From Owenia fusiformis (Eukaryota), in NCBI GenBank assembly GCA_903813345.2, contig CAIIXF020000001.1:62001-126000 (forward strand): a stretch of DNA of 64,000 nt, written 5' to 3'. Positions 12,350 through 61,600 of this stretch are shown in pieces (the first letter of the stretch is position 1; each line of letters opens with the position of its first letter). The notes beneath the pieces are model-generated. The model was not told the origin of the DNA. It ran no database searches and saw only the letters and a program-made list of their open reading frames with translations. The position numbers were made by a program, and so were the translations under genes.

Positions 12350-14230
12350 ATCTATTTTTTTATTTTTTTTTTTAGCATAATATTTATTTCCTTCATAATC
12401 AAAAAATACACAAAATATCTACTACCAATCGCCATAGGCATTCTAGGTAGTTTAAATTACAATAGAGGATTAATTACAGTAATCATAGATGGTTATTGGT
12501 AATGTGAGAGGTTGGGAGGGAGGGGGGGATGTCACAAGATACAAATGAGAATAACATTAATTTGATGGAAACTTATAACAGGCCTGTACAAATTTCATCA
12601 CTATATCTATCAGGATTTTCTGAGAATCAATAGTGAGTTCATTTTCATATATTAAATATTTGACCTGTTCTGTCTTGCTAGAAATAAGTTGAGTATCAAA
12701 CAATAAATTTTGTTCACGAAGTGCAGTCATCATTTTATTACGTTCATGGGTATGGCGAGGGCAGGTTAGAATGAAATGCTTTGTGTCTTCAATAGAGCCA
12801 CAGAGGCATTTGTTGTCAATTATTCCAGTAAAGTTATGAGTAAAGAAATGGTCTTTAAGGGCAAAATCAACTCGAAGCCTATTTAGCAGTTTTTCTTTGG
12901 TTCTACTTAAATTTAGTTTTGTAGTTGGTATGAAGTTTGAGATAAATATCTGTTTGATAGAGCTTTTGAATCTAGAAATGGTTTGAATTTCACGAAAGGT
13001 CTGGCTTAGCTGGTTCCAATCATTTATAAGTTTAAAACTGGTGCTTTGGAGAGTCTCATTGAAATATTTCTTGGGCAGGAAAAGGGTAAGGAGTGTCTTA
13101 AAATTCTAGTTGCTTGGTTGCGATGTTGGTCAAAAAGACTATGGACATAATAAGGCACTTCCTTTCTTACAATTTTGAACATCAGTCTTAGATTTTTTTG
13201 TGTCTTGTCAGTAAGCGATTTCCACTGTAAACATTTAAAGGTTTTTGAGGTGTTAGAGCCATGCAGTACCCCAGCACATATAACAGCAGCTTGATAGTGG
13301 ATTTTATCAAGCTTTGATAAGGCGGCCAAGGATGACGATCCGTAAATGGAGCTACAATAATCAAAATGAGACGCCAAATATGAATTATACATTATTTCAA
13401 GATGGTGCGACTGTATTTTGTTTGATATGAGCTTCAAAGGATTTAACAGTTTTTGGACTTTATTAGACAGATAGTTTATATGGTCATTAAAAGTCAAATT
13501 CTCATCTAAGATGAAACCCAGGTGCTTGTGTGATTGTTTTTGGGGGATCATTTCACCATCAAAGTAAAGCGGGGACATTTGAATATTTTTTTTCGGTTTG
13601 AGCGAAAAACTAAATGAGCACTTTTAGATGCTTTAAATTTCAATTGCCAGGTTCTAGACCATACACTTAAAAGATTTAGATAATTTTGGAGTTGGCCAGT
13701 TTGATTGCCAGAAGGGTGAAAGAAAGAGTATAAGGAGGTATCATCTGCATAGATAAAAGTTTTCGAGGTCAGAGTATCAGGAAGGTCATTTATGTATATC
13801 AGAAACATCAGGAGTCCGATTATGGACCCCTGAGGCACACCGGAGTTTATGAAGTGGTCAGGAGAAAATTTTGATGTGTGATCATCTACAGTGACACAGA
13901 CTTTTCGATTCTCTAAGTAAGAAGAGCAGAGGTCGGCTAATTTACCTTGAATTCCATATGATTTCATCTTATGAATGAGTAAGTTATGCGGTACAGTATC
14001 AAAAGCAGACGCCACGTCTAAATAAACAGAATTAACACAGTTCCCTTTTTCCATTTCGTTAAAGATATAGTCAGTTATTGCTAAAAGTTGTAGCTCAGTG
14101 TTGTGTCCTGGAAGAAATCCAGATTGAAATTGATAAAGAAGGTTATTTTCAAGTAGATGCGTTAAAATGCGATTATGCACAACTTTTTCAAAAATTTTGG
14201 AAAAAGTGCTTACAGCATTTTACAGCATTT
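12350..14230 (-). mobile_element. LINE (CR1/Crack-like) ORF2 fragment with RT core, frameshifted
   Basis: ORF 13548..14180 has QSGF, LDVASAFDTV, SGVPQGS and YADD. It continues in 13024..13578 (HLGFILD), then a C-terminal CLCG..EDTKHFILTC finger near 12760-12810 and a poly(A)-like tail at ~12355-12375. Confidence 0.9.
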
Positions 14231-19996: not shown

Positions 19997-20184
19997 CTTC
20001 TAAAGACTGGCACCATGCTGGCAAAGACAAAGCGCTCCTATGCACTAAATGTAGACTATTCTACAAGAAATATGGTGAAGATCGGCCACTAGATGACTCT
20101 CCTTTCTTGTTCAAACCAGTGAAAGATGAAGATGAAACCTTAAACGGGAAGCCAATTATGCGAACTCGTAGATCAAGGGAATCG
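19997..20184 (+). CDS. RERE: RERE exon D (second half of zinc finger, SKDWHH...LLCTKC...PFLFKPVK...MRTRRSR)
   Basis: tgtag|CT...TCG|gtgagt, 188 nt, phase 1-0. Strong RERE motif match. Confidence 0.95.
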
Positions 20185-20702: not shown

Positions 20703-20864
20703 GGCAAGACAAAGTTAAAGAAGGACCGCCAACAGACAAAAGACAGTGAGGAAGACATGACATGTCTGCTCAATAGCTCCGCAATATCACAGAAAATTGG
20801 TCGGAAGTCTCCTAGTTCTGCCTCCACTTGTAGCAGCAGCAGCTCAGATAACAAAACCACAAAG
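20703..20864 (+). CDS. RERE: RERE exon E (GKTKLKK...GRKSPSSASTCSSSSSDNKTTK)
   Basis: ttttgtag|GGC...AAG|gtacat, 162 nt, phase 0-0. The GRxSPSxAST.SS motif resembles RERE. The first donor is assumed; identical donors repeat downstream. Confidence 0.85.
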
Positions 20865-23610
20865 GTACATATTTGTAATATACAGGGTGGGCAGTGTAAT
20901 AACAAAACCACAAAGGTACATATTTGTAATATACAGGGTGGGCAGTGTAATAACAAAACCACAAAGGTACATATTTGTAATATACAGGGTGGGCAGTGTA
21001 ATAACAAAACCACAAAGGTACATATTTGTAATATACAGGGTGGGCAGTGTAATAACAAAACCACAAAGGTACATATTTCTAATATACAGGGTGGGCAGTG
21101 TAATAACAAAACCACAAAGGTACATATTTGTAATATACAGGGTGGGCAGTGTAATAACAAAACCACAAAGGTACATATTTCTAATATACAGGGTGGGCAG
21201 TGTAATAACAAAACCACAAAGGTACATATTTGTAATATACAGGGTGGGCAGTGTAATAACAAAACCACAAAGGTACATATTTCTAATATACAGGGTGGGC
21301 AGTGTAATAACAAAACCACAAAGGTACATATTTGTAATATACAGGGTGGGCAGTGTAATAACAAAACCACAAAGGTACATATTTGTAATATACAGGGTGG
21401 GCAGTGTAATAACAAAACCACAAAGGTACATATTTGTAATATACAGGGTGGGCAGTGTAATTACAAAACCACAAAGGTACATATTTCTTATATACAGGGT
21501 GGGCAGTGTAATAACAAAACCACAAAGGTACATATTTGTAATATACAGGGTGGGCAGTGTAATAACAAAACCACAAAGGTACATATTTCTAATATACAGG
21601 GTGGGCAGTGTAATAACAAAACCACAAAGGTACATATTTGTAATATACAGGGTGGGCAGTGTAATAACAAAACCACAAAGGTACATATTTCTAATATACA
21701 GGGTGGGCAGTGTAACAACAAAACCACAAAGGTACATATTTGTAATATACAGGGTGGGCAGTGTAATAACAAAACCACAAAGGTACATATTTCTAATATA
21801 CAGGGTGGGCAGTGTAATAACAAAACCACAAAGGTACATATTTGTAATATACAGGGTGGGCAGTGTAATAACAAAACCACAAAGGTACATATTTGTAATA
21901 TACAGGGTGGGCAGTGTAATAACAAAACCACAAAGGTACATATTTGTAATATACAGGGTGGGCAGTGTAATAACAAAACCACAAAGGTACATATTTCTAA
22001 TATACAGGGTGGGCAGTGTAATAACAAAACCACAAAGGTACATATTTGTAATATACAGGGTGGGCAGTGATATGATTGATAACAAAACCACAAAGGTACA
22101 TATTTGTAATATACAGGGTGGGCAGTGTAATAACAAAACCACAAAGGTACATATTTGTTTGTAATATTCAGGGTGGGCAGTGATATGTGTGATAACAAAA
22201 CCACAAAGGTACATATTTGTTTGTAATATACAGGGTGGGCAGTGATATGATTAATAACAAAACCACAAAGGTACATATTTGTAATATACAGGGTGGGCAG
22301 TGATATGATTAATAACAAAACCACAAAGGTACATATTTCTAATATACAGGGTGGGCAGTGTAATAACAAAACCACAAAGGTACATATTTCTAATATACAG
22401 GGTGGGCAGTGTAATAACAAAACCACAAAGGTACATACATATTTCTAATATACAGGGTGGGCAGTGTAATAACAAAACCACAAAGGTACATATTGCTAAT
22501 ATACAGGGTGGGCAGTGATATGTTTGATTACAAAACCACAAAGGTACATATTTCTAATATACAGGGTGGGCAGTGTAATAACAAAACCACAAAGGTACAT
22601 ATTTGTAATATACAGGGTGGGCAGTGATATGATTGATAACAAAACCACAAAGGTACATATTTGTAATATACAGGGTGGGCAGTGATATGATTGATAACAA
22701 AACCACAAAGGTACACATTTGTTTGTAATACTCAGGGTGGGCAGTGATATGTGTGATAACAAAACCACAAAGGTACATATTTGTTTCTAATATACAGGGT
22801 ATTCAGTGATATGTGTGATAACAAAACCACAAAGGTACACATTTTTGTAATATACATGGTGGGCAGTGATATGTGTGATAACAAAACCACAAAAGTACAC
22901 ATTTGTTTGTAATATTCAGGGTGGGCAGTGATATGTGTGATAACAAAACCACAAAGGTACACATTTGTTTGTTATATTCAGGGTGGGCAGTGATATGTGT
23001 GATAACAAAACCACAAAGGTACACATTTGTTTGTAATATTCAGGGTAGGCAGTGATATGTGTGATAACAAAACCACAAAGGTACACATTTGTTTGTTATA
23101 TACAGGGTGGGCAGTGATATGTGTGATAACAAAACCACAAAAGTACACATTTGTTTGTAATATACAGGGTGGGCAGTGATATGTGTGATAACAAAACCAC
23201 AAAGGTATACATTTGTTTGTAATACTCAGGGTGGGCAGTGATATGTGTGATAACAAAACCTCAAAGGTACATATTTGTTTGTAATATACAGTGTGGGCAG
23301 TGATATGTGTGATAACAAAACCACAAAGGTACACATTTGTTTGTAATATACAGGGTGGGCAGTGATATGATTAATAACAAAACCACAAAGGTACATATTT
23401 GTAATATACAGGGTTGGCAGTGTAATAACAAAACTACAAAGGTACATATTTGTAATATACAGGGTGTGTAGTGATATGATTAATAACAAAACCACAAAGG
23501 TAAAATGCACATTTGTTATATACTGAGTATTTCTGATGACAAAACAACAAAGGTAAAATGCACATTTGTTATACTGAGTATTTCTGATGACAAAACAACA
23601 AAAAATCACT
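20848..23610 (+). repeat. 51-bp minisatellite spanning the exon E splice donor
   Basis: Unit ataacaaaaccacaaag|gtacatatttgtaatatacagggtgggcagtgta. About 24 near-perfect copies to 22070, then ~26 degenerate units of mixed length (51-64 bp). Confidence 0.97.
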
Positions 23611-23840
23611 TATAATATGCAGGTTGGGCATTTAAAAAAGATTTTATAAACACTAACCTCAGTGTTGGAATCAAAACCTGATTCACCCTTTGTTATTTGT
23701 GTGATGTATCCAATATAGCCACTTCTATTTAAGGATATTAGTATATCTTTATTTAAGAGTAAAATTGAGTGGATAGCAATCAGTACTATATTATGTTATT
23801 TTGGATTTTTAACTTAAACAATTATTTTAAAATATTTCAG

Positions 23841-23891
23841 CAGCCAAACTCTGAATCCAGTGAATCAGTTCAACCAATCCAGATCAAAAAG
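23841..23891 (+). CDS. RERE: RERE exon F (51 nt; QPNSESSESVQPIQIKK)
   Basis: tttcag|CAG (NAGNAG acceptor) ... AAG|gtaata, phase 0-0, open frame. Confidence 0.7.
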
Positions 23892-23944
23892 GTAATAACT
23901 TATGATACATTGATGTTCTGGCATCTGAAATTAGGCAATTGCAA

Positions 23945-24060
23945 TCTGCCTCATGCCTGATCACACCCATGCCTTGAATGATAACCTCATGCCTAATCAC
24001 AACCATGCCTGTAATGATTACCTCATGCCTGATCACACCCATGCCTGTAATGGTTACCCC
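23945..24060 (+). repeat. ~37-bp tandem repeat, three copies
   Basis: cctcatgcctgatcacacccatgcc repeated three times just downstream of exon F. Confidence 0.75.
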
Positions 24061-24225
24061 CAAAAGAACTGAAACTCTTTGTTGCTGATAAAAATGTCTA
24101 ATTAAATTATACAGTTATAAATATAAAGTTTCAGCCAGAATAAGTTTTTTCTCAAATATCCATTTTCAAGAAATCAGGTGTCAAATGAAATTGTTTTTAA
24201 ATGTATTGTGATGTGATTGTTCCAG

Positions 24226-25472
24226 GAACCAACAGAGAGCCAATCAGAATCATCGTCAGAGAGTAGCAGCATATCTGGTAATGAAGAAAATGGAATAGAC
24301 GCTGATATTGAAACTAATCAGGAAGATGCATCATCTGGCTCAGAAAGTGTCCCTAGTTCAAGGGAAAATGACCAAGATTATAAACCCCCATCATACATAA
24401 AGACTGAACCAATAGAATGTCCCATATCTGGGTCACCCATAGATTTCACATGTAAACCACCCTTTGAGGATACCAAATCTGGCGAGTCTCCAACCATTAA
24501 GGTACCCGAACCAGTAATTGTTGTGCCTCATATTAAATCTGAACCTATTGAGCCTGAAGAGCAAGAAACAGAAAATCCTACAGATGTAGAGGACTCTATA
24601 CCACTTGAACAATTAAGGTTGATTGACCAGTCACACCTTCCACGACATCAACCAATAGATCAACAAGATGGTGTAGAGCATCAACATCTACTGGTGCATT
24701 CACCAAAATCAGTAGAACAAACTCAAACAATTGAACATCCAGGCTTCCTCCCCCACAGGATGGATATGCCTAGATCTGGACTTAGACAAGATACACATAG
24801 GACTGATATCCTAAGGCCTGATGTGCAACTTCCAAATTTAGTTAAATCAGACTTGAACAGAACTGAGTTATTAAGACCAGATATTCTAACTAGGCCTGAT
24901 TTATTGAGGCCTGGGTTACCTTTAAGGCCCGATTTACCCCCAAGGTCTGATTTACCCCAAAGGCCTGATTTACCCCAAAGGTCTGATTTACCCCAAAGGC
25001 CAGATTTACCCTCAAGGCCTGATTTACCCCCAAGGCCTGATTTACCCCAAAGGCCTGATTTACCCCAAAGGTCTGATATACCCCAAATGCCAGATTTACC
25101 CTCAAGGCCTGATTTACCCCTAAGGTCTGATTTACCCCAGAGGCCTGAGGTACACAGTGGGCCATTTGACTATCACCACCCATATCCCAGTGAGCATAGT
25201 CTACCTCACTCTTTAGTTCCTCCCCTAGAGCATCGAATAGAGTCAGAGACCCCCAGTTCTCGAATAGAACACCCAAAGGATAACCAATCTGATGAGCCCC
25301 CAAGCAAGAGGGCCAGGTCAAATTCACCAGCTAATATTGACCTTAGTGTCGTCAAACAAGAAGTGGATATTGATGTGCAGGTTGATAGTGATTCAGAACC
25401 AGAGCCTGATAGAGGACCAACTCCAGAGCCACAGCAATGTTATGAGGAACTTCACAAGAGCAAATCTGCAAT
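24226..25472 (+). CDS. RERE: RERE exon G (large acidic/proline-rich Atrophin region with RPDLPQ repeats)
   Basis: ttccag|GAA...GCAAT|gtgagt, 1247 nt, phase 0-2. ORF 24217..25476 ends RGPTPEP...HKSKSA, like the Atrophin SPEP...H.SQSA motif. Confidence 0.93.
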
Positions 25473-26544: not shown

Positions 26545-26722
26545 TATATTAAGCAGTTAGGTAAGGTTAAATGTAGATAAAGGAGTATAGGTATGGTTGA
26601 TCCCATAAATGTACCTACATGTCCTAAGTCAAAGTTGTTTAAGGAAAAAACTCTTCTCCCAAAGACAACTTATTATCCCATCGAACGAAGTTCGGAGGGA
26701 TATAGGGAACGCCTCCGTCCGT

Positions 26723-29364
26723 TAGCAAACTAAGTAAAAAATATGAAATCAAAAAGGCAGCAGACCAAAAACAAAGAGAGGACAAGGAGTCCTACTGGAT
26801 AAAGAAATTCCAATGTGTACACCCATACGGATTAAACAACAGACTGGAGAAAAATCTTCAGCAAAGAACAGAAGATGATGTAATATACAACGACTTTGAT
26901 AACAAACGGAAGAAGAAAAACAAAAGGCCAAAGGGAAACCACCGTAAAGAAAAGGCATTAAAAGCCAATGACGTATTTGAAACTATAGTGGAACAAAGCA
27001 ATGGAAATGTACTGGCAGGTATGAAAACAATCTTGAGATTAGTCCCACAAATGAAGAAGACAGAATTGAAAAAACTTGGAATGATAAATATAGAAGATAA
27101 TGATAGACTACACACACGACTTAAAATTACTCTGGAGGACAGAATCCAATCAAAACTTAGGAAAAACAATGAACTAAAAACCAAGAATAGGAAAAAGAAA
27201 CCAACAAAATTCTGTAAAATACTATTTGAAAACAAAGCAGTAGAAGTAATCAACATTGCAAATATCTTAAGAGATGAAGAAGTGATCAAGACAATACCTT
27301 CAAGTATCAAAAATAAGGAACCACCAGGAATTGTCTATATATACACAAAACCAATAAGGAATAAATTGTTCAACTATAGTGAGATTACAGAAAGTATCGA
27401 CGAAGGCAACAATACAGGAGAATGTGATTGTAATACATCTGAATTTAAGGATGAAGACCATGGTCACATCATAACAGGAAATCTGAAGATTATACAAAAT
27501 TCAAAATTGAGAAAGCTATTTAGTAAAGGTCCTGGCTATAGAGAAAAACGAAACATTAACTTCAGGAAAGCAAAAGAAGAAATAAAGAAAGGAATAGATG
27601 AATATGCAATAAGTTGGACAAAAAATGAAAAAGTTTCAAAAGTATACTTAAATGAATGGAAAAATACTGTAATGGAAAAGGTTAAACAAAAGATTGAGTT
27701 ACTTCAAAATACAAAATTTAGACATATTAAAAATCCAAAGCAGACACTAAAGGACCATAATGCTATGGAAGAACTCAATCAACTCAAGGAAAAATATGCC
27801 ATTGTACCTATTGATAAGGCAGCAAATAATATTGGGTTTATGTGCAAACAATACTACATAAAGAAGATTAAAGAGGAAATTGGGAGTGACACCTATCAAA
27901 GGATAGAAGATAAAGGAGAAGAAGATATAGTGGAGGAAATCAAAGAGACAATGAAAACAAAATTCAAGATTGAACCGGGAGAAGAACAAAATATTATACC
28001 AAGGATTCATCTTACAATTAAAATGCATAAACAGCCAATTAAATTTAGATATATCATTGGCTCAAAGAAAAGTTCTGTAAAACCAGCTGCCAAAAAACTG
28101 ACCAAAATTCTTAAACTAGTGCAATATACTAACAAAAGATACTGTGAGAAGATTAAGGATTATACAGGTGCCAATAGGATGTGGATCAGTGACAATAACC
28201 AAAATATGTTAGATAACATTAAAAGTGTAAATTTAAGGAACGGGGCAAGAAACATAGCCTCGTATGATTTCTCTACACTATACACAAAGATTAATCTAAC
28301 TGACATAAAGGAAAAACTGAAATGGGTGATAGATAAAGCCTTCAGAGGAGGAACTAACCAAAAGATAACAGTAGGTGGAGATGAAGCCAAATGGGGTGGA
28401 AAGGCGGATAATAAAAAGGCATATACCAAAGGAGAGTGCAATGATCTAGTGGATTTCATCGTGGATACAGCCTACTTTAAAGCAGGGAAATCAATTCTAA
28501 GACAGAAAATTGGAATACCGATGGGAATCGATCCGGCGCCATATATGGCAAACCTATACTTATACAGTTATGAATTTCAAGCCATTGAGAAAATGTATAG
28601 GGAAGACTACTCCAAAGTACTAAAATATGCTAAAACTACAAGATTCATCGATGATTTATGTACTATAAACAACGACAGAGAAATGGAGACTGATATGAAG
28701 AACATCTATCCTGAAGAACTAGTGTTAAACAAGGAAAATGAGAAGGATACAGAAACAACTTTTCTGGACATACAAATGAAAATAGTAAATAAACAAATCA
28801 CTACAAAACTATACGACAAAAGGGAAAACTTCAATTTCCAAATAGTCTCATATCCTGATCTATCTGGAAATATTCCTAAAAACCAATCTTATGGAATATT
28901 TATATCACAAATAATAAGGATTTCAAGAATCTGCAGTCAACTGGAAGATGCAACAAACAGAGTTACCAGCCTGGGAAATAAACTACAATGTCAAGGCTAC
29001 AGGAGCAACATACTAAATTCGTATACTAAGAAAGCTATAACAAGAAATAAATGGATATGTACTAAATACAATATGCAGGAGAATATCATCATGAAGGACT
29101 GGAAAATTAATGAGAGAAGAGAACATTAACAAATGAATATGAAACAGTATCTTCTCCGCAAAGAGGGTAAACTAAGATGACAAATCAGCATAAGACCAAC
29201 AGTAAGGGGAAGGGGAGAGTTTTCCGGCCGGATCAAAACGTTTAACCCACCTATGCGCAGTCTCAAGTCTGTGGACCCTGAAGAAAGATAAGTAACATCG
29301 CAATCAAATCAAGACAAAGAAAGAAGAAAATGAATGAAGAAACCAATGCAGCAACAACAAATGA
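26723..29364 (+). mobile_element. Penelope-like retroelement, Naiad-type (N-terminal GIY-YIG remnant, CxC, RT), 5'-truncated
   Basis: Flanked by cgtccgt direct repeats (26716-26722 and 29365-29371). Single open frame to 29129. Confidence 0.88.
26724..29129 (+). CDS. PLE polyprotein (partial): GIY-YIG C-terminal part, CxC linker and reverse transcriptase
   Basis: The frame is open upstream of the ORF-track start and reads REDKESYWIKKFQCVHPYGLN (GIY-YIG end). It continues CDC...HGHIITG, KGPGYRE, PIDKA, YDFSTLYT, GIPMG..PAP..ANLYL, RFIDD, FLD, LYDKR. Confidence 0.88.
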   Translation, partial: SKLSKKYEIKKAADQKQREDKESYWIKKFQCVHPYGLNNRLEKNLQQRTEDDVIYNDFDNKRKKKNKRPKGNHRKEKALKANDVFETIVEQSNGNVLAGMKTILRLVPQMKKTELKKLGMINIEDNDRLHTRLKITLEDRIQSKLRKNNELKTKNRKKKPTKFCKILFENKAVEVINIANILRDEEVIKTIPSSIKNKEPPGIVYIYTKPIRNKLFNYSEITESIDEGNNTGECDCNTSEFKDEDHGHIITGNLKIIQNSKLRKLFSKGPGYREKRNINFRKAKEEIKKGIDEYAISWTKNEKVSKVYLNEWKNTVMEKVKQKIELLQNTKFRHIKNPKQTLKDHNAMEELNQLKEKYAIVPIDKAANNIGFMCKQYYIKKIKEEIGSDTYQRIEDKGEEDIVEEIKETMKTKFKIEPGEEQNIIPRIHLTIKMHKQPIKFRYIIGSKKSSVKPAAKKLTKILKLVQYTNKRYCEKIKDYTGANRMWISDNNQNMLDNIKSVNLRNGARNIASYDFSTLYTKINLTDIKEKLKWVIDKAFRGGTNQKITVGGDEAKWGGKADNKKAYTKGECNDLVDFIVDTAYFKAGKSILRQKIGIPMGIDPAPYMANLYLYSYEFQAIEKMYREDYSKVLKYAKTTRFIDDLCTINNDREMETDMKNIYPEELVLNKENEKDTETTFLDIQMKIVNKQITTKLYDKRENFNFQIVSYPDLSGNIPKNQSYGIFISQIIRISRICSQLEDATNRVTSLGNKLQCQGYRSNILNSYTKKAITRNKWICTKYNMQENIIMKDWKINERREH

Positions 29365-32644: not shown

Positions 32645-35600
32645 CATGTATGCTTTATTTCAGTGGTGTAGGAACAATGTATGCTTTATTCAGTGGTGTA
32701 GGAACAATGTACGCTTTATTCAGTGGTGTAGGAACAATATATGCTTTATTCAGTGGTGTAGGAACAATGTATGCTTTATTCAGTGGTGTAGGAACAATGT
32801 ATGCTTTATTCAGTGGTGTAGGAACAATATATGCTTTATTCAGTGGTGTAGGAACAATGTTTGCTTTATTCAGTGGTGTAGGAACAATGTACGCTTTATT
32901 CAGTGGTGTAGGAACAATGTATGCTTTATTCAGTGGTGTAGGAACAATGTACGCTTTATTAAGTGGTGTAGGAACAATGTATGCTTTATTCAGTGGTGTA
33001 GGAACAATGTATGCTTTATTCAGTGGTGTAGGAACAATATATGCTTTATTCAGTGGTGTAGGAACAATGTACGCTTTATTCAGTGGTGTAGGAACAATGT
33101 ATGCTTTATTCAGTGGTGTAGGAACAATATATGCTTTATTCAGTGGTGTAGGAACAATATATGCTTTATTCAGTGGTGTAGGAACAATGTATGCTTTATT
33201 CAGTGGTGTAGGAACAATGTACGCTTTATTCAGTGGTGTAGGAACAATGTATGCTTTATTCAGTGGTGTAGGGACAATGTATGCTTTATTCAGTGGTGTA
33301 GGAACAATGTACGCTTTATTCAGTGGTGTAGGAACAATGTACGCTTTATTCAGTGGTGTAGGAACAATATATGCTTTATTCAGTGGTGTAGGAACAATGT
33401 ACGCTTTATTCAGTGGTGTAGGGACAATGTACGCTTTATTCAGTGGTGTAGGAACAATGTATGCTTTATTCAGTGGTGTAGGAACAATGTACGCTTTATT
33501 CAGTGGTGTAGGAACAATGTACGCTTTATTCAGTGGTGTAGGAACAATATATGCTTTATTCAGTGGTGTAGGAACAATGTATGCTTTATTCAGTGGTGTA
33601 GGAACAATGTACGCTTTATTCAGTGGTGTAGGAACAATGTATGCTTTATTCAGTGGTGTAGGAACAATATATGCTTTATTCAGTGGTGTAGGAACAATGT
33701 ATGCTTTATTCAGTGGTGTAGGAACAATGTACGCTTTATTCAGTGGTGTAGGAACAATGTATGCTTTATTCAGTGGTGTAGGAACAATGTATGCTTTATT
33801 CAGTGGTGTAGGAACAATATATGCTTTATTCAGTGGTGTAGGAACAATGTATGCTTTATTCAGTGGTGTAGGAACAATGTACGCTTTATTCAGTGGTGTA
33901 GGAACAATGTATGCTTTATTCAGTGGTGTAGGGACAATGTATGCTTTATTCAGTGGTGTAGGAACAATGTACGCTTTATTCAGTGGTGTAGGAACAATGT
34001 ACGCTTTATTCAGTGGTGTAGGAACAATATATGCTTTATTCAGTGGTGTAGGAACAATGTATGCTTTATTCAGTGGTGTAGGAACAATGTACGCTTTATT
34101 CAGTGGTGTAGGAACAATGTACGCTTTATTCAGTGGTGTAGGAACAATATATGCTTAATTCAGTGGTGTAGGAACAATGTATGCTTTATTCAGTGGTGTA
34201 GGAACAATGTATGCTTTATTCAGTGGTGTAGGAACAATGTACGCTTTATTCAGTGGTGTAGGAACAATGTACGCTTTATTCAGTGGTGTAGGAACAATGT
34301 ACGCTTTATTCAGTGGTGTAGGAACAATGTACGTTTATTCAGTGGTGTAGGAACAATGTATGCTTTATTCAGTGGTGTAGGAACAATGTACGCTTTATTC
34401 AGTGGTGTAGGAACAATGTATGCTTTATTCAGTGGTGTAGGAACAATGTACGCTTTATTCAGTGGTGTAGGAACAATGTATGCTTTATTCAGTGGTGTAG
34501 GAACAATGTGTGCTTTATTCAGTGGTGTAGGAACAATGTACGCTTTATTCAGTGGTGTAGGAACAATGTACGCTTTATTCAGTGGTGTAGGGACAATGTA
34601 TGCTTTATTCAGTGGTGTAGAAACAATGTACGCTTTATTCAGTGGTGTAGGAACAATGTACGCTTTATTCAGTGGTGTAGGGACAATGTATGCTTTATTC
34701 AGTGGTGTAGGAACAATATATGCTTTATTCAGTGGTGTAGGAACAATGTACGCTTTATTCAGTGGTGTAGGGACAATGTACGCTTTATTCAGTGGTGTAG
34801 GAACAATGTATGCTTTATTCAGTGGTGTAGGAACAATGTATGCTTTATTCAGTGGTGTAGGAACAATATATGCTTTATTCAGTGGTGTAGGAACAATGTA
34901 CGCTTTATTCAGTGGTGTAGGAACAATGTACGCTTTAATCAGTGGTGTAGGGACAATGTGTGCTTTATTCAGTGGTGTAGGAACAATATATGCTTTATTC
35001 AGTGGTGTAGGAACAATGTACGCTTTATTCAGTGGTGTAGGAACAATATATGCTTTATTCAGTGGTGTAGGAACAATGTATGCTTTATTCAGTGGTGTAG
35101 GAACAATGTATGCTTTATTCAGTGGTGTAGGAACAATATATGCTTTATTCAGTGGTGTAGGAACAATGTATGCTTTATTCAGTGGTGTAGGAACAATGTA
35201 TGCTTTATTCAGTGGTGTAGGAACAATATATGCTTTATTCAGTGGTGTAGGAACAATGTTTGCTTTATTCAGTGGTGTAGGAACAATGTACGCTTTATTC
35301 AGTGGTGTAGGAACAATGTACGCTTTATTCAGTGGTGTAGGAACAATGTGTGCTTTATTCAGTGGTGTAGGAACAATGTACGCTTTATTCAGTGGTGTAG
35401 GGACAATGTATGCTTTATTCAGTGGTGTAGAAACAATGTACGCTTTATTCAGTGGTGTAGGAACAATGTGTGCTTTATTCAGTGGTGTAGGAACAATATA
35501 TGCTTTATTCAGTGGTGTAGGAACAATGTACGCTTTATTCAGTGGTGTAGGAACAATATATGCTTTATTCAGTGGTGTAGGAACAATGTATGCTTTATTC

Positions 35601-37450
35601 AGTGGTGTAGGAACAATGTATGCTTTATTCAGTGGTGTAGGAACAATGTACGCTTTATTCAGTGGTGTAGGAACAATATATGCTTTATTCAGTGGTGTAG
35701 GAACAATGTACGCTTTATTCAGTGGTGTAGGAACAATATATGCTTTATTCAGTGGTGTAGGAACAATGTGTGCTTTATTCAGTGGTGTAGGAACAATATA
35801 TGCTTTATTCAGTGGTGTAGGAACAATGTACGCTTTATTCAGTGGTGTAGGAACAATATATGCTTTATTCAGTGGTGTAGGAACAATGTATGCTTTATTC
35901 AGTGGTGTAGGGACAATGTGTGCTTTATTCAGTGGTGTAGGAACAATATATGCTTTATTCAGTGGTGTAGGAACAATGTACGCTTTATTCAGTGGTGTAG
36001 GAACAATATATGCTTTATTCAGTGGTGTAGGAACAATGTATGCTTTATTCAGTGGTGTAGGAACAATGTATGCTTTATTCAGTGGTGTAGGAACAATATA
36101 TGCTTTATTCAGTGGTGTAGGAACAATGTTTGCTTTATTCAGTGGTGTAGGAACAATGTACGCTTTATTCAGTGGTGTAGGAACAATGTATGCTTTATTC
36201 AGTGGTGTAGGAACAATGTACGCTTTATTCAGTGGTGTAGGAACAATGTACGCTTTATTCAGTGGTGTAGGAACAATGTACGCTTTATTCAGTGGTGTAG
36301 GAACAATGTACGTTTATTCAGTGGTGTAGGAACAATGTACGCTTTATTCAGTGGTGTAGGAACAATGTACGCTTTATTCAGTGGTGTAGGAACAATGTAT
36401 GCTTTATTCAGTGGTGTAGGAACAATGTACGCTTTATTCAGTGGTGTAGGAACAATGTATGCTTTATTCAGTGGTGTAGGAACAATGTGTGCTTTATTCA
36501 GTGGTGTAGGAACAATGTACGCTTTATTCAGTGGTGTAGGAACAATGTACGCTTTATTCAGTGGTGTAGGGACAATGTATGCTTTATTCAGTGGTGTAGA
36601 AACAATGTACGCTTTATTCAGTGGTGTAGGAACAATGTACGCTTTATTCAGTGGTGTAGGGACAATGTATGCTTTATTCAGTGGTGTAGGAACAATATAT
36701 GCTTTATTCAGTGGTGTAGGAACAATGTACGCTTTATTCAGTGGTGTAGGGACAATGTACGCTTTATTCAGTGGTGTAGGAACAATGTATGCTTTATTCA
36801 GTGGTGTAGGAACAATGTATGCTTTATTCAGTGGTGTAGGAACAATATATGCTTTATTCAGTGGTGTAGGAACAATGTACGCTTTATTCAGTGGTGTAGG
36901 AACAATGTACGCTTTATTCAGTGGTGTAGGGACAATGTGTGCTTTATTCAGTGGTGTAGGAACAATATATGCTTTATTCAGTGGTGTAGGAACAATGTAC
37001 GCTTTATTCAGTGGTGTAGGAACAATATATGCTTTATTCAGTGGTGTAGGAACAATGTATGCTTTATTCAGTGGTGTAGGAACAATGTATGCTTTATTCA
37101 GTGGTGTAGGAACAATATATGCTTTATTCAGTGGTGTAGGAACAATGTATGCTTTATTCAGTGGTGTAGGAACAATGTATGCTTTATTCAGTGGTGTAGG
37201 AACAATATATGCTTTATTCAGTGGTGTAGGAACAATATATGCTTTATTCAGTGGTGTAGGAACAATGTATGCTTTATTCAGTGGTGTAGGAACAATGTAT
37301 GCTTTATTCAGTGGTGTAGGAACAATATATGCTTTATTCAGTGGTGTAGGAACAATGTATGCTTTATTCAGTGGTGTAGGAACAATATATGCTTTATTCA
37401 GTGGTGTAGGAACAATGTTTGCTTTATTCAGTGGTGTAGGAACAATGTAC
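32645..37450 (+). repeat. 30-bp minisatellite, ~160 copies, with a ~1979-bp higher-order duplication
   Basis: Unit gtatgctttattcagtggtgtaggaacaat. The 1-bp deletion variant recurs at ~34331 and ~36310, followed by nearly the same variant order. Confidence 0.98.
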
Positions 37451-39037: not shown

Positions 39038-39046
39038 GTAAGTAGG

Positions 39047-40862
39047 GCCAATTGAGCCATACTACTACCAAATGCAATGCCAATTGAGCCATACCACTAC
39101 CAAATGCAATGCCAATTGAGCCATACCACTACCCAATGCAATGCCAATTGAGCCATACCACTACCAAATGCAATGCCAATTGAGCCATACCATTACCCAA
39201 TGCAATGCCAATTGAGCCATACCACTACCAAATGCAATGCCAATTGAGCCATACCACTACCCAATGCAATGCCAATTGAGCCATACCACTACCCAATGCA
39301 ATGCCAATTGAGCCATACCACTACCCAATGCAATGCCAATTGAGCCATACCACTACCCAATGCAATGCCAATTGAGCCATACCACTACCAAATGCAATGC
39401 CAATTGAGCCATACCATTACCCAATGCAATGCCAATTGAGCCATACCACTAACAAATGCAATGCCAATTGAGCCATACCACTACCCAATGCAATGCCAAT
39501 TGAGCCATACCACTACCAAATGCAATGCCAATTGAGCCATACACTACCCAATGCAATGCCAATTGAGCCATACCACTACCCAATGCAATGCCAATTGAGC
39601 CATACCACTACCCAATGCAATGCCAATTGAGCCATACCACTACCCAATGCAATGCAAACTAAACCATACCACTACCCAATACAATGCCAATTGAACCATA
39701 CCACTACCCAATGCAATGCCAATTCAACCATACCACTACCCAATACAATGCCAATTGAGCCATACACTACCCAATTCAATGTCAATTGATCCATACCACT
39801 ACCCAATTCAATGCCAATTGAGCCATACGCTACCCAATTCAATGTCAATTGATCCATACCACTACCCAATTCAATGCCAATTGAGCCATACGCTACCAAA
39901 TGTAATGCCAATTGAACCATACCACTACCCAATGCAATGCCAATTGAGCCATACCACTACCAAATGCAAAACCAAGTGGGCCATACCACTACTAAATGCA
40001 AAACCAAGTGAGCCATACCACTACCAAATGCAATGCCAGTTGAGCCATCCCACTACCCAATGCAATGCCAATTGAGCCATACCACTACCAAATGCAAAAC
40101 CAAGTGAGCCATACCACTACTAAATGCAAAACCAAGTGAGCCATACCACTACCAAATGCAATGCCAATTGAGCCATACCACTACCCAATGCAATGCCAAT
40201 TGAACCATACCACTACCCAATGCAATGCCAATTGAGCCATACCACTACCAAATGCGAAGCCAAGTGAGCCATAACACTACCCGATGCAATGCCAACTTAA
40301 CTATACCACTACCCAATGCAATGCCAATTGAGCCATACTACTACCCAATGCAATGCCAATTGAGCCATACCACTACCCAATACAATGCCAATTGAACCAT
40401 ACCACTACCAAATGTAATGCCAATTGAACCATACCACAACCCAATACAATGCAAATTGAGCCATACCACTACCAAATGCAATGCCAATTGAGCCATACCA
40501 CTACCCAATGCAATGCCAATTGAACCATACCACTACCCAATGCAATGCCAATTGAGCCATACCACTACCAAATGCGAAGCCAAGTGAGCCATAACACTAC
40601 CCGATGCAATGCCAACTTAACTATACCACTACCCAATGCAATGCAAATTGAGCCATACTACTACCCAATGCAATGCCAATTGAGCCATACCACTACCCAA
40701 TGCAATGCCAATTAAACTATACCACTACCCCATGCAATGCCAATTGAACCATACCACTACCCAATACAATGCCAGTTGAGCCATACCACTACCAAATGCA
40801 ATGCCAACCGAGTCATTCCACTACCCAATGCAATGCCAGCTCAACTATACCACTACCCAATG
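39047..40862 (+). repeat. 32-bp minisatellite, ~57 copies
   Basis: Unit gccaattgagccataccactacccaatgcaat, beginning 10 nt after the exon H donor. Confidence 0.97.
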
Positions 40863-41213
40863 TTGTAAATGCTTCACATATTGGTTGTTGTAAATATTTC
40901 AAATAATGCTTGTTGTAAATATTTCAAATATTGCTTGTTGTAAATGCTTCACATATTGGTTGTTGTAAATGTTTTACATATTTGTTGTTGTAAATGTATC
41001 AAATATTGATGGTTGCCAATGTTGTAAACATTGTACAATGAGCTCATACTGGTTGTTCTAAATGTTTTACATATTGGATGTTGGAAATGTTTCAAATATT
41101 GGTTGTTATAAATACTTCACATATTGGTTGTTGTAAATGTTTCACATATCGGTTGTTATCAATGTTGTAAACATTGTAGAATTTGCTCATACTGGTTGTT
41201 GTAAATGTTTCAG
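40860..41213 (+). repeat. Degenerate ~25-bp repeat ending in the exon I acceptor
   Basis: atattggttgttgtaaatgtttcac units; the last copy reads ...gtaaatgtttcag|. Confidence 0.8.
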
Positions 41214-46113: not shown

Positions 46114-46343
46114 GTAAAGACATGTTAATAGCCTATTATGCCCAAACATAATTCTCATCTAAATATATTCTAAAATTTCTCTTAATTCACTATGATATTT
46201 AACTTACAATAAGTAGACATCTTACCTGGTCAGCAGTATGAAAAGTTCCAAAATATAATTGCCAAAATAATACTACTATGCAAACTAAAAAAATGCTTGC
46301 TCATTATTGATTTTAATGATGAACAATTTGTTTCAAGCTACGC

Positions 46344-47750
46344 AGAATGAGGTTTATGTCCAGGTCTGTTACACAAAATGAGGTTTATGTCCAGGTCTGT
46401 TACACAAAATGAGGTTTATGTCCAGGTCTGTTACACAAAATGAGGTTTATGTCCAGGTCTGTTACACAAAATGAGGTTTATGTCCAGGTCTGTTACACAA
46501 AATGAGGTTTATGTCAAGGTCTGTTACACAAAATGAGGTTTATGTCCAGGTCTGTTACACAAAATGAGGTTTATGTCCAGGTATGTTACACAAAATGAGG
46601 TTTATGTCCAGGTCTGTTACACAAAATGAGGTTTATGTCCAGGTCTGTTACACAAAATGAGGTTTATGTCCAGGTCTGTTACACAAAATGAGGTTTATGT
46701 CCAGGTCTGTTACACAAAATGAGGTTTATGTCCAGGTCTGTTACACAAAATGAGGTTTATGTCAAGGTCTGTTACACAAAATGAGGTTTATGTCCAGGTC
46801 TGTTACACAAAATGAGGTTTATGTCCAGGTCTGTTACACAAAATGAGGTTTATGTCCAGGTCTGTTACACAAAAGGAGGTTTATGTCCAGGTCTGTTACA
46901 CAGAATGAGGTTTATGTCCAGGTCTGTTACACAAAAGGAGGTTTATGTCCAGGTCTGTTACACAGAATGAGGTTTATGTCCAGGTTTGTTACATAAAACG
47001 AGGTTTATGTCCAGGTCTGTTACACAGAATGAGGTTTATGTCCAGGTCTGTTACACAAAATGAGGTTTATGTCCAGGTCTGTTACACAAAATGAGGTTTA
47101 TGTCCAGGTCTGTTACACAAAATGAGGTTAATGTCCAGGTCTGTTACACAGAATGAGGTTTATGTCCAGGTCTGTTACATAAAACGAGGTTTATGTCCAG
47201 GTCTGTTACACAGAATGAGGTTTATGTCCAGGTCTGTTACACAAAATTAGGTTTATGTCCAGGTCTGGTACACAAAATGAGGTTTATGTCCAGGTCTGTT
47301 ATACAAAAGGAGGTTTATGTCCAGGTCTGTTACACAGAATGAGGTTTATGTCCAGGTCTGTTACACAAAATGAGGTTTATGTCCAGGTCTGTTACACAAA
47401 ATGAGGTTTATGTCCAGGTCTGTTACATAAAACGAGGTTTATGTCCAGGTCTGTTACACAAAATGAGGTTTATGTCCAGGTCTGTTACACAAAATGAGGT
47501 TTATGTCCAGGTCTGTTACATAAAATGAGGTTTATGTCCAGGTCTGTTACACAAAATGAGGTTTATGTCCAGGTCTGTTACACAAAATGAGGTTTATGTC
47601 CAGGTCTGTTGCACAGAATGAGGTTTATGTCAAGGTATGTTACACAAAATGAGGTTTATGTCCAGGTCTGTTGCACAGAATGAGGTTTATGTCAAGGTAT
47701 GTTACACAAAATAAGGTTTATGTCCAGGTCTGTTACACAAAATGAGGTTT
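46344..47750 (+). repeat. 31-bp minisatellite, ~45 copies
   Basis: Unit aggtttatgtccaggtctgttacacaaaatg. Confidence 0.97.
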
Positions 47751-47893
47751 ATTATGTAAACTTGGTATTTTTCTCTTATTCATTGATTTTGCACTTGAAA
47801 TTCATATAGGATGATTTCCAAAAGTTAAACCATAGACATTGACCAGTGAAAGAATAAGATTGAATTATGCAAAAGTCTTATTTTTTGTTCCAG

Positions 47894-48269: not shown

Positions 48270-49350
48270 AACATAAATTTACACTAGTGTGCAGATGAAC
48301 ATGCATTAACACTGGTGTACTAAAGATGAACATGGTTTTACACTAGTGTATTACAGATGAACATGCATTTACACTGGTGTACTAAAGATGAACATGGTTT
48401 TACACTAGTGTATTACAGATGAACATGCATTTACACTGATGTACATCAGATGAACATGGATTTACACTAATGTATTACAGATGAACATGCATTTACACGG
48501 GTGTGCATCAGTTGAACATGCATTTACACTGGTGTACTACAGATGAACATGCATTTACACTGGTGTACTAAAGATGAACATGGTTTTACACTAGTGTATT
48601 ACAGATGAACATGCATTTACACTGATGTACATCAGATGAACATGGATTTACACTAATGTATTACAGATGAACATGCATTTACACGGGTGTGCATCAGTTG
48701 AACATGCATTTACACTGGTGTACTACAGATGAACATGCATTTACACTAGTGTATTACAGATGAACATGCATTTACACTGGTGTGCATCAGATGAACATGC
48801 ATTTACACTGGTGTACTGCAGATGAATATGCATTTACCCTGGCTGACTATTGAGGAACATTTATTTACACCATTGTACTACAGATGAACATACATGTACA
48901 CTGGTGTGCTACAGATGAACATGCATTTACACTGGTGTACTATAGATGAACATGTATTTACAACAGTGTAGTACAGATGAACATACATGTACACTGGTGT
49001 GCTACAGATGAACATGCATTTACACTGGTGTACTATAGATGAAGATGTTTTTACACCAGTGTTCTATAGATGAACATGCATTTGCACTGGTGTACTACAG
49101 ATGAACATGTATTAGCAACAGTGAACTACAAATGAACATCCATTTACACTGGTGTACTACAGATGAACATATATTTACACTTGTGCACTTTAGATGAACA
49201 TGCATTTACACCAGTATACTACAGATGAACATGTATTTACAACAGTGTAGTACAAATGAACATGCATTTACACTGGTGTACTACAGATGAACATTTATTT
49301 ACACGTGTGTACTATAGGTGAACATGTATTTACACCAGTGTACTACAGCA
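48270..49350 (+). repeat. ~31-bp degenerate minisatellite in the probable 3' UTR
   Basis: Unit cagatgaacatgcatttacactggtgtacta, ~34 copies. Confidence 0.9.
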
Positions 49351-56226: not shown

Positions 56227-57527
56227 TCGGGTGTCCCAAAAAAAAACGTCCCGCTTTTTGAGCTCTTATAACTCTGCAAGATATTAACCAATTCATTTGA
56301 AATTTATCAGGGAGTAAGATAAGGATATCATCTATAAGTTATCAAAATATTAAATTAATCGGATGTACATTATGTGAGTATTACCAAATACAAGATAGCA
56401 TAGCAAGAAATGTAATATCGGAGGACAACTCACTTAATTCACCTTATAATGTAGATTGATGAGCATCGCCAAATACATAAGTTTAACAGCATAAGATAAA
56501 AAGTTGGTACAGCAAAAGATGGACAACTCACTTATATGTTAAAGGAAAAAGAAAAACAAGATGTCGCAATTTATATGATCGTTATTCATCCGCAGATGTC
56601 AAGAAGATCATTTTCACTGATGAGAAGGACTTTTCTCTTGAAGTGCCCAAAAATCGTCAAAATGATCGGGTGTATGGAAAGCGTAAACGTCAAATTCAAC
56701 CATCACGTCTTTACCATGAAACTTCACGTTATCCAAAAAGATAATGGTTTCTGCAGGAGTATCCTGGAAGGGGAAGACGGACATTTATTTCATTAATACT
56801 GACAAAGCCAAAGTCAACAGCGAAAGCTATATTAAGTTATTAGATGAAAATCTGCTACCTGATTGTAGGAGGATTTACCCTAGAAATGACTATGTGTTTC
56901 AAGATGGGGCCCCTTCCCACACAAGTGGGGTAACTCATGCGTATCTGGAGATATCCACCACAGCATTTATCAAAAAGGTTGAATGGCCTCCACAAAGTCC
57001 AGACTGTAATCCAATGGATTACTCTGTTTGGGATCCTCTAAATCAAAAAGTTAACAGTGGTATGAGGGATAATTTTACAGAACAAACATTAAAAGAGAGA
57101 ATAAGTGCGTCATGGCAGGAGATATCACAGAATGAAATCAAGAGCAGTATCTATGTATGGAAGAAACGACTTCGTTTAGTTGTGAAGGAAGATGGAGGCC
57201 ACATTGAGCACAAGTTATTAGATAAGTGGGTTGTCGATCTTTTGCTGTACCAACTTTTTATCTTATGCTGTTTAACTTTTGTATTTGGCGATGCTCATCA
57301 ATCTACATTATAAGGTGAAATAATTGAGTTATCCTCTGATATTACATTTCTTGCTATGCTATCTTGTATTTGGCGATACTCACATAATGTACATCCGATT
57401 AATTTAATATTTTTATAGCTTATAGATAATATCGTTCTCTTACTCCCTGATATTTCAAATGAATTGGTTAATATCTTGCAGAGTTATAAGAGCTCAAAAA
57501 GCAGGACGTTTTTTTTGGGACACCCGA
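56227..57527 (+). mobile_element. Tc1/mariner element, maT (DD37D) family, internally deleted, ~250-bp TIRs
   Basis: TA|tcgggtgtcccaaaaa...gggacacccga|TA. Catalytic remnants IIFTDEK, FQDGAPSH and SPDCNPMDY, with 37 residues between D2 and D3; N-terminal HTH region missing. Confidence 0.88.
56600..57230 (+). pseudogene. Transposase catalytic-domain remnant
   Basis: KIIFTDEKDF...RQNDRVY (~56603) then a frameshift into ORF 56744..57313 (MVSAGVSWKG...WPPQSPDCNPMDYSVW...DGGHIEH). Confidence 0.85.
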
Positions 57528-58659: not shown

Positions 58660-61600
58660 TCAACTTGGAATACTGAATCTTATTGTGAGAGGGGTACCTG
58701 CTTCCTGAACACATATCTTTGTTTAATGTGATAGTTAACTGGAGACTTGGAATAATGAATCTTATTGTAAGTGAGAAGGGTACCTGCTTCCTGAACACAT
58801 ATCCTTGTTTAATGTGATAGTTAACTGGAGACTTGGAATAATGAATCTTATTGTAAGTGACAAGGGTACCTGCTTCCTGAACACATATCTTTGTTTAATG
58901 TGATAGTTAATTGGAGACTTGGAATAATGAATCTTATTGTAAGTGAGAAGGGTACCTGCTTCCTGAACACATATCTTTGTTTAATGTGATAGTTAACTGG
59001 AGACTTGGAATACTGAATCTTATTGTAAGTGAGAAGGGTACCTGCTTCCTGAACACATATCTTTGTTTAATGTGATAGTTAACTGGAGACTTGGAATACT
59101 GAATCTTATTGTAAGTGAGAAGGGTACCTGCTTCCTGAACACATATCTTTGTTTAATGTGATAGTTAATTGGAGACTTGGAATACTGAATCTTATTGTAA
59201 GTGAGAAGGGTACCTGCTTCCTGAACACATATCTTTGTTTAATGTGATAGTTAACTGGAGACTTGGAATAATGAATCTTATTGTAAGTGAGAAGGGTACC
59301 TGCTTCCTGAACACATATCTTTGTTTAATGTGATAGTTAATTGGAGACTTGGAATACTGAATCTTATTGTAAGTGAGATGGGTACCTGCTTCCTGAACAC
59401 ATATCTTTGTTTAATGTGATAGTTAATTGGAGACTTGGAATAATGAATCTTATTGTAAGTGAGAAGGGTACCTGCTTCCTGAACACATATCTTTGTTTAA
59501 TGTGATAGTTAATTGGAGACTTGGAATAATGAATCTTATTGTAAGTGAGAAGGGTACCTGCTTCCTGAACACATATCCTTGTTTAATGTGATAGTTAATT
59601 GGAGACTTGGAATAATGAATCTTATTGTAAGTGAGAAGGGTACCTGCTTCCTGAACACATATCTTTGTTTAATGTGATAGTTAATTGGAGACTTGGAATA
59701 ATGAATCTTATTGTAAGTGAGAAGGGTACCTGCTTCCTGAACACATATCTTTGTTTAATGTGATAGTTAATTGGAGACTTGGAATAATGAATCTTATTGT
59801 AAGTGAGAAGGGTACCTGCTTCCTGAACACATATCCTTGTTTAATGTGATAGTTAATTGGAGACTTGGAATAATGAATCTTATTGTAAGTGAGAAGGGTA
59901 CCTGCTTCCTGAACACATATCTTTGTTTAATGTGATAGTTAATTGAAGACTAAGAATACTGAATCTTATTGTAAGTGAGAAGGGTACCTGCTTCCTGAAC
60001 ACATATCTTTGTTTAATGTGATAGTTAATTGGAGACTTGGAATAATGAATCTTATTGTAAGTGAGAAGGGTACCTGCTTCCTGAACACATATCTTTGTTT
60101 AATGTGATAGTTAATTGGAGACTTGGAATAATGAATCTTATTGTAAGTGAGAAGGGTACCTGCTTCCTGAACACATATCTTTGTTTAATGTGATAGTTAA
60201 TTGGAGACTTGGAATAATGAATATTATTGTAAGTGAGAAGGGTACCTGCTTCCTGAACACATATATTTGTTTAATGTGATAGTTAACTGGAGACTTGGAA
60301 TACTGAATCTTATTGTAAGTGAGAAGGGTACCTGCTTCCTGAACACATATATATTTGTTTAATGTGATAGTTAACTGGAGACTTGGAATAATGAATCTTA
60401 TTGTAAGTGAGAAGGGTACCTGCTTCCTGAACACATATCTTTGTTTAATGTGATAGTTAATTGGAGACTTGGAATAATGAATCTTATTGTAAGTGAGAAG
60501 GGTACCTGCTTCCTGAACACATATCTTTGTTTAATGTGATTAAGTTAACTGGAGACTTGGAATAATGAATCTTATTGTAAGTGACAAGGGTACCTGCTTC
60601 CTGAACACATATCTTTGTTTAATGTGATTAAGTTAACTGGAGACTTGGAATACTGAATCTTATTGTAAGTGACAAGGGTACCTGCTTCCTGAACACATAT
60701 CTTTGTTTAATGTGAAAGTTAACTGGAGACTTGGAATACTGAATCTTATTGTAAGTGAGAAGGGTACCTGCTTCCTGAACACATATCTTTGTTTAATGTG
60801 ATAGTTAACTGGAGACTTGGAATAATGAATCTTATTGTAAGTGAGAAGGGTACCTGCTTCCTGAACACATATCCTTGTTTAATGTGATAGTTAACTGGAG
60901 ACTTGGAATAATGAATCTTATTGTAAGTGAGAAGGGTACCTGCTTCCTGAACACATATCTTTGTTTAATGTGATAGTTAATTGGAGACTTGGAATAATGA
61001 ATCTTATTGTAAGTGAGAAGGGTACCTGCTTCCTGAACACATATCCTTGTTTAATGTGATAGTTAATTGGAGACTTGGAATAATGAATCTTATTGTAAGT
61101 GAGAAGGGTACCTGCTTCCTGAACACATATCTTTGTTTAATGTGATAGTTAATTGAAGACTAAGAATACTGAATCTTATTGTAAGTGAGAAGGGTACCTG
61201 CTTCCTGAACACATATCTTTGTTTAATGTGATAGTTAATTGGAGACTTGGAATAATGAATCTTATTGTAAGTGAGAAGGGTACCTGCTTCCTGAACACAT
61301 ATCTTTGTTTAATGTGATAGTTAATTGGAGACTTGGAATAATGAATCTTATTGTAAGTGAGAAGGGTACCTGCTTCCTGAACACATATCTTTGTTTAATG
61401 TGATAGTTAATTGGAGACTTGGAATAATGAATATTATTGTAAGTGAGAAGGGTACCTGCTTCCTGAACACATATATTTGTTTAATGTGATAGTTAACTGG
61501 AGACTTGGAATACTGAATCTTATTGTAAGTGAGAAGGGTACCTGCTTCCTGAACACATATATATTTGTTTAATGTGATAGTTAACTGGAGACTTGGAATA

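Follow-up and report, generated by a model that had tools for sequence, protein, structure and literature searches.

What becomes of a splice junction when the junction itself has been turned into a tandem repeat? The question is raised by a minisatellite in a 64,000-bp stretch of DNA from Owenia fusiformis (contig CAIIXF020000001.1, positions 62,001 to 126,000 of the forward strand; the whole stretch is referred to as the window, and all positions are counted from its first letter). The minisatellite begins inside a coding exon, exon E, of a gene that is RERE/atrophin-like as judged by homology, and repeats the splice donor of this exon over almost the entire following intron. An earlier note on the same DNA had proposed that these donors are used as a series, whereas the analysis reported here points, with a probability of roughly 0.72, to a lineage-specific intronic minisatellite derived from the exon/intron junction, of which the first donor would be used and the others would be silent.

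The array extends on the + strand from 20848 to around 23632 and comprises 50 units and one decayed partial copy, as parsed by cutting at the conserved core AAAGGTA or AAAAGTA. Its start is that given in the earlier note, whereas the end proposed there (23610) is slightly short, since the last decayed copy reaches to around 23632. In total, 93% of the intron of 2976 nt belongs to the array. Tandem Repeats Finder reports it at 20848..23473 (period 51, 48.0 copies, 90% matches, score 3282), with two overlapping rows, one at 22125..23502 with 23.4 copies of period 62 and one at 23486..23602 with 2.2 copies of period 51, the latter being a diverged 51-bp tail. The units are 51 bp long in 28 cases, 62 bp in 12, and 58 bp in six, with four singletons, and fall into 26 distinct variants. 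With at most three mismatches, the 44-nt core of the unit is matched 34 times, always within 20851-23471 (0 expected from 100 shuffles); outside the array, no further copies of the unit were found in the 64-kb window, only chance matches of at most 15 nt.

Unit 1 consists of the last 17 nt of exon E (20848-20864), followed by the donor and the intron, of which 34 nt are included in total; this parse agrees with the description in the earlier note of a 51-bp unit carrying the donor AAG/GTACAT (here and below, the slash marks the splice junction). The array is arranged in blocks. The first (20848..22020) contains 23 units, each of exactly 51 bp, with a mean pairwise identity of 0.986; two main variants, which differ by G or C at unit position 28, alternate in part and give rise to a 102-bp higher-order pattern, and unit 1 is identical to units 2-4. 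The second block (22021..22693) contains the 12 units 24-35, of 51, 55, 58, or 62 bp (identity 0.890), and in it the first in-frame stop codon (TGA, 22068-22070) and the first frame shifts occur. The third (22694..23373) is made up of the 11 units 36-46, all of the 62-bp family (ten of 62 bp and one of 60 bp; identity 0.930). The distal end (23374..23632) comprises two units of the 51/58-bp forms, two diverged units with the donor AAG/GTAAAA, and the decayed last copy, which has no GT at the donor position; the identity of units 47-50 amounts to 0.759. The homogeneity next to the exon and the decay away from it, both noted before, are thus borne out. Beyond the array follows a unique intron tail of 208 nt (23633..23840) that contains no repeat unit and ends with the acceptor ...atatttcag.

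The unit forms differ from each other by few indels: the 51-bp form shows a gap of 7 nt in comparison to the 58-bp form, and the latter is distinguished from the 62-bp form by 4 nt (TTTG). The units of 58 and 62 bp have 18 nt (GATAAC...AAAG) in common with the end of exon E, and the most distal unit junctions, TCTGATGAC, resemble exon E slightly further upstream, where it reads TCAGATAAC.

Concerning the gene in which the array is situated, SANT, GATA finger, and Atrophin-1 region occur in this order together with a stretch of RE dipeptides, and the gene, which lies on the + strand with most of its length inside the window, is RERE/atrophin-like by these homologies. Pfam matches of single exons were obtained for GATA (E=4.1e-6) and Atrophin-1, both just under the gathering score, and tblastn with four orthologues placed exons from 2765 (SANT) to around 47974 (C-terminus). 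The upstream neighbour of exon E is the GATA zinc-finger exon (19997..20184, + strand, ending in phase 0 with the donor TCG/GTGAGT; assigned by Pfam and tblastn). As a query (19999-20184) against 1.84 billion representative proteins it matched 204 proteins at E <=0.001, the best long match (87% identity) being P0002, named 'arginine-glutamic acid dipeptide repeats protein-like, partial' of Octopus bimaculoides, which is also the best named orthologue; a protein-cluster search with P0002 led to clusters of the MTA/RERE type. The RERE identity assumed in the earlier note is accordingly in agreement with Pfam, protein search, and orthologue mapping.

Exon E itself (20703..20864, + strand; 162 nt, 54 amino acids (aa), phase 0 at both ends, acceptor ...ttttgtag), whose 3' end reads ...ACAAAACCACAAAG/GT, is by homology a genuine RERE/atrophin exon. 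In an alignment to residues 546-599 of P0002, 33 of 56 positions are identical (E=3e-13 without composition correction), whereas default BLASTP against the same protein covers residues 1-49 only (E=1.8e-9). Under lenient alignment, the exon end SSSSS-D-NKTT is placed against NSST-DRD-KKTT of the octopus. The homology to the octopus protein through D-x-KTT suggests that the exon end is ancestral and that the repeat was copied from the exon.

The array contains 48 AAG/GTA sites, which continue as GTACAT (39 sites), GTACAC (6), GTAAAA (2), or GTATAC (1). Hence the presumed authentic 5' splice site AAG/GTACAT (20862..20870, + strand) is found as the same 9-mer at 39 of the 48 sites; use of its junction 20864/20865 in the mRNA is presumed from homology and reading frame. 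The duplicated segment includes AG/GT: among the 50 full units, 48 show AAAG/GTAC, whereas two read AAAAGTAC. All 24 donors situated at 20864+51k keep phase 0, with no stop up to the TGA at 22068, and the donors beyond this position follow the stop codon and are mostly out of phase. Both the count of about 24 in-frame donors with a frame open to 22068 and the stops predicted for distal donors had been given correctly in the earlier note.

The favoured explanation assumes that a segment of around 50-60 bp across the boundary between exon E and its intron, containing 17-18 nt of exon, the donor, and around 34-44 nt of intron, was tandemly duplicated and then amplified by unequal exchange or replication slippage. 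The older units of 58 and 62 bp would have come to lie distally, and a 51-bp derivative without the stretches of 4 nt and 7 nt would have been amplified most recently beside the exon, partly in steps of two units. Since unit 1 is identical to units 2-4, it probably takes part in the homogenisation of the array. The pre-mRNA would consequently carry 48 donor-like AAG/GTA sites, of which, by analogy with published cases, the spliceosome would use the first (20864/20865) almost exclusively, and at most the next one or two, yielding minor in-frame products with 17 or 34 additional amino acids; the remaining donors would be silent pseudo-sites that leave with the intron.

These published cases come from five human genes. 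In the intervening sequence 7 (IVS7) of F7, a variable number tandem repeat (VNTR) of 37 bp is found, the first monomer of which spans the boundary between exon 7 and intron 7; in minigenes splicing was confined to the most upstream functional donor, those downstream being functional but silent, and mutation of upstream donors leads to the use of the next available one and to more exon skipping (PMC1557585). In intron 2 of IFI6 (6-16), 25 pseudo-sites come after the authentic donor and splicing makes use of the two most proximal ones, and in intron 13 of CBS two pseudo-sites are used besides the authentic donor, whereas in LMNB2 and PDGF the authentic donor alone is used (PMC1557585). None of the five cases is described as having a ladder across the array or as using a site beyond the third donor (PMC1557585).

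The organization of the array studied here is similar to that of F7: in both, the first monomer spans the exon/intron boundary, identical pseudo-sites follow downstream, the array is situated at the 5' end of the intron, and the reiterated donor is not a consensus donor. There are, however, differences: the 37-bp unit of F7, present in 5-9 copies, takes in 4 nt of exon and is not divisible by 3 in length, whereas the present array has around 50 copies, 51-62 bp long and including 17-18 nt of exon, 24 of them in frame. IFI6 resembles it in its many reiterated donors, the extra ones of which, where used, give alternative mRNAs. The IFI6 minisatellite has a much shorter unit, of 12 nt. In CBS intron 13, LMNB2, and PDGF intron 4, the first monomer likewise spans the exon-intron boundary, and the unit sizes (81-100 bp for PDGF and LMNB2) and the copy numbers (10-20) are comparable to those of the present array, although these three are vertebrate genes.

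The array has the features common to the five human cases, i.e., head-to-tail units of tens of bp, a first monomer that holds what homology indicates to be a genuine exon end with its donor, and an identical donor reiterated downstream. It is not a new kind of element. Among the literature matches listed, none described an array of this type for RERE or for any mollusc, such that the instance in RERE appears to be new, the architecture being already known from human genes.

Several observations weigh against the favoured explanation. First-donor use is transferred by analogy from the five human genes, two of which (IFI6 and CBS) use extra donors. The donor AAG/GTACAT, although strong on its exon side (AAG), lacks GTRAGT, the type found at six of the nine firmly placed donors of the gene, and its strength is therefore uncertain. 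When exon E was folded as RNA together with eight units, the predicted unpaired probability of the donor 9-mer was alike for donors 1-8 (0.57-0.60), so that predicted local structure does not single out the first donor. In the older units, the exon-derived 17 nt together with GTA are better conserved than the rest (majority fraction 0.973 vs 0.849), which could hint at constraint on the pseudo-donors or at gene conversion biased towards the sequence of unit 1. Furthermore, lenient scoring is needed to align the five C-terminal residues of exon E with the octopus protein. Finally, a basic motif SPxKGKKRQ (around 11-19 residues), which is conserved at the E/F junction (exon F being the next exon downstream) in the orthologues P0002, P0009, P0030, and P0032, is absent from the protein of the window, and neither tblastn nor inspection by eye revealed a trace of it in 20865-24225; its loss suggests that the junction was remodelled in this lineage.

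The sequence following the donors bears on their choice as well. After each donor the motif GGGTGGG is found (42 copies in the array), and GGG is absent from exon E, such that any extended exon would hold G-runs. In mammals, G-runs favour upstream donors where they are intronic and act as silencers where they are exonic; on this basis the downstream donors would be disfavoured.

The explanation given in the earlier note, a VNTR-tuned isoform ladder, holds that splicing draws on many of the 24 in-frame donors, such that 0-23 additional Cys/His-containing modules of 17 aa enter the RERE linker. We consider it improbable. It draws on the 24 identical phase-0 donors without a stop before 22068, on the equal predicted accessibility of donors 1-8, and on unit length, which is a multiple of 3 in all exon-proximal units and mostly not in the distal ones; IFI6 and CBS, moreover, each use two pseudo-sites besides the authentic donor (PMC1557585). 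Yet the extended exons would measure 213 to 1335 nt and contain G-runs, and none of the five published cases is described as going beyond the third donor (PMC1557585). A restricted form, in which several of the first in-frame donors are used appreciably and donor choice and copy number insert 17-aa modules into a disordered linker, is equally doubtful; if it were true, the stop-free, multiple-of-3 state of the proximal 23-24 units would be kept because it makes donor slippage harmless.

The open reading frame, which had been taken as a sign of coded 17-aa modules, does not carry this meaning. The 51-bp unit is free of stops in five of the six frames, which speaks against frame-specific selection rather than in favour of coding, and 21% of shuffled units leave any one given frame open, such that the combination of a length that is a multiple of 3 with an open frame is not significant. 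At least five open frames are reached by just 0.25% of mononucleotide shuffles of the unit (20848-20898). An internal control is provided by a minisatellite of 160 copies of 30 bp (32646-37449), which is situated far inside the 13-kb intron that follows exon G and gives rise to open reading frames (ORFs) of up to 1247 aa. On either strand, this 30-bp array has several frames open. In protein alignments, no counterpart of the 17-aa module was found in the orthologues at the position of the array. The read-through ORF of 455 aa had no match among proteins of 250-797 aa in a collection of 5.8 billion proteins; this negative is weak, since the RERE protein of the species itself is apparently missing from the collection. 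The frame open through 24 units is best regarded as a side effect of the amplification of a unit that is poor in stops and divisible by 3 in length.

A coding tandem repeat within the exon was also considered and rejected, given the five open frames, the TGA at 22068 with the frame shifts, and the lack of the module in orthologues. The alternative parse of each unit into a GT..AG segment of 21 nt and a pseudo-exon of 30 nt is arithmetically correct, but 21 nt is far too short for an intron: the introns mapped in the host gene measure 245 nt or more, and canonical splicing has a minimum intron length requirement below which 21 nt falls (PMC5435141).

According to another explanation, a minisatellite that existed in the intron before or was brought in by a mobile element would have supplied exon E with a new 3' end and a new donor. 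Such exonisation could account for the around 11-19 residues, including SPxKGKKRQ, that are missing exactly at the E/F junction, since such a loss could follow if splicing moved to a new donor upstream, and the identity of unit 1 with units 2-4 is consistent with a junction homogenised with the array. Against it, D-R-D-K-K-T-T of the octopus matches D-N-K-T-T of the window, the unit is absent elsewhere in the 64 kb, and the older units share more exon sequence with exon E, not less. Since the older units share more of the exon and the unit is locally unique, duplication of the junction is favoured over capture of a foreign repeat, and exonisation appears unlikely.

The idea that the donors are kept as intronic binding sites of the U1 small nuclear ribonucleoprotein (snRNP) has very little to recommend it. 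Intronic U1 sites have a role in suppressing premature cleavage or cryptic exons, and such a function could be imagined in a repeat-filled gene. The conservation of the exon-derived 17 nt and GTA in the older units would fit, but much of the difference between 0.973 and 0.849 stems from two indel polymorphisms, and gene conversion from a selected first unit explains what remains equally well. Assemblers are known to struggle with long homogeneous arrays, but an assembly artefact in the array or its copy number is most improbable here, given the ordered structure with 26 variants, partly alternating units, and blocks of distinct unit families, the unique flanks on either side, and five other arrays of similar kind in the same gene span.

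A related question is whether the duplication created the intron. In the AGGT model of intron gain, a tandem duplication that holds AG/GT generates additional splice signals, and an intron begins at the GT of one copy and ends at the AG of the copy after it, such that the mRNA is restored (PMC3265369, PMC4974935). The array is similar to this model in that AG/GT lies within the duplicated segment. It differs in that the intron does not end at the AG of a downstream copy: the acceptor (23840/23841) is separated from the last decayed copy by 208 nt and lies in unique sequence. The signature of intron gain by tandem duplication, for which the earlier note had called this locus a natural test, is hence absent, and the duplication enlarged the intron rather than demonstrably creating it.

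Downstream of the array, the intron is followed by exon F (23841..23891, + strand), a micro-exon of 51 nt, QPNSESSESVQPIQIKK, in phase 0 at both ends and with the donor AAG/GTAATA. Its assignment relies on splice signals, its homology being weak, with a loose alignment to Q-x-NS[DE][ST]...KKK of the orthologues. Exon G (24226..25472, + strand), which starts in phase 0, encodes an acidic, Ser-rich linker with SSSISGNEENG and contains an 18-bp coding repeat. The gene map obtained with tblastn is consistent in frame with the order E, F, and G, and the acceptors at 23841 and 24226 given in the earlier note fit it. Exon G had no match among proteins of 728-2075 aa in the collection, from which the RERE protein of this species is apparently missing. 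No Pfam family was assigned to exon E, exon G, or an ORF of 807 aa (26706-29129; no match at E <=0.01).

Further repeats are found in and around the gene. The short intron between exons F and G contains three copies of a 36-bp repeat (CCTCATGCCTGATCACACCCATGCCTGTAATGATTA; 23949-24058), and inside exon G an in-frame repeat of 18 bp (24924-25148, around 12.5 copies) encodes hexapeptides of the RPDLPQ type. The intron 39038-41213 consists wholly of tandem repeats save for its first 9 nt: an array of 57 copies of 32 bp begins at intron position +10 (39047), and an array with periods of 25, 68, and 143 bp (40861-41212) ends at the acceptor. The unit of the latter, TGTTGTAAATGTTTCA[C/A], is the same as the real 3' splice site TGTTGTAAATGTTTCAG but for the AG. 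Another array (46 copies of 31 bp, 46339-47752) lies in the last mapped intron, and one of 34 copies of 31 bp (48292-49348) is situated just downstream of the C-terminal exon. A satellite of 62 copies of 86 bp (58663-64000) runs off the end of the window. In total, around 19 kb of the 64 kb are minisatellite or satellite (summed over the large Tandem Repeats Finder rows).

The gene contains six large arrays, and of their 12 ends three, one belonging to the 51-bp array, lie within 17 nt of a splice junction, where 0.24 would be expected (P of about 0.002, a rough hand estimate made post hoc). In a wider version of the multi-donor reading, minisatellites of this genome would be seeded or bounded by splice sites. 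In addition, ORFs resembling those of mobile elements were recognised by eye in or near the gene at 2-715 and 12557-14219 (both on the minus strand) and at 26706-29129 and 56720-57313 (both on the plus strand); among ORFs of this kind, three overlapping ones on the minus strand are reverse-transcriptase-like and one is transposase-like.

For gene annotation, ab initio prediction is misled by signals such as the 455-aa read-through ORF and the ORFs of at least 1000 aa that neighbouring arrays contain. If the assembly is right, the array constitutes an unusually large natural set for competition among 5' splice sites, in which 48 donor-like sites, 39 of which have the same 9-mer, lie within a co-repressor gene that is essential and conserved, and this in a non-vertebrate. 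The rule that the most upstream donor wins, established in minigenes of human F7, could be tested on it outside the vertebrates.

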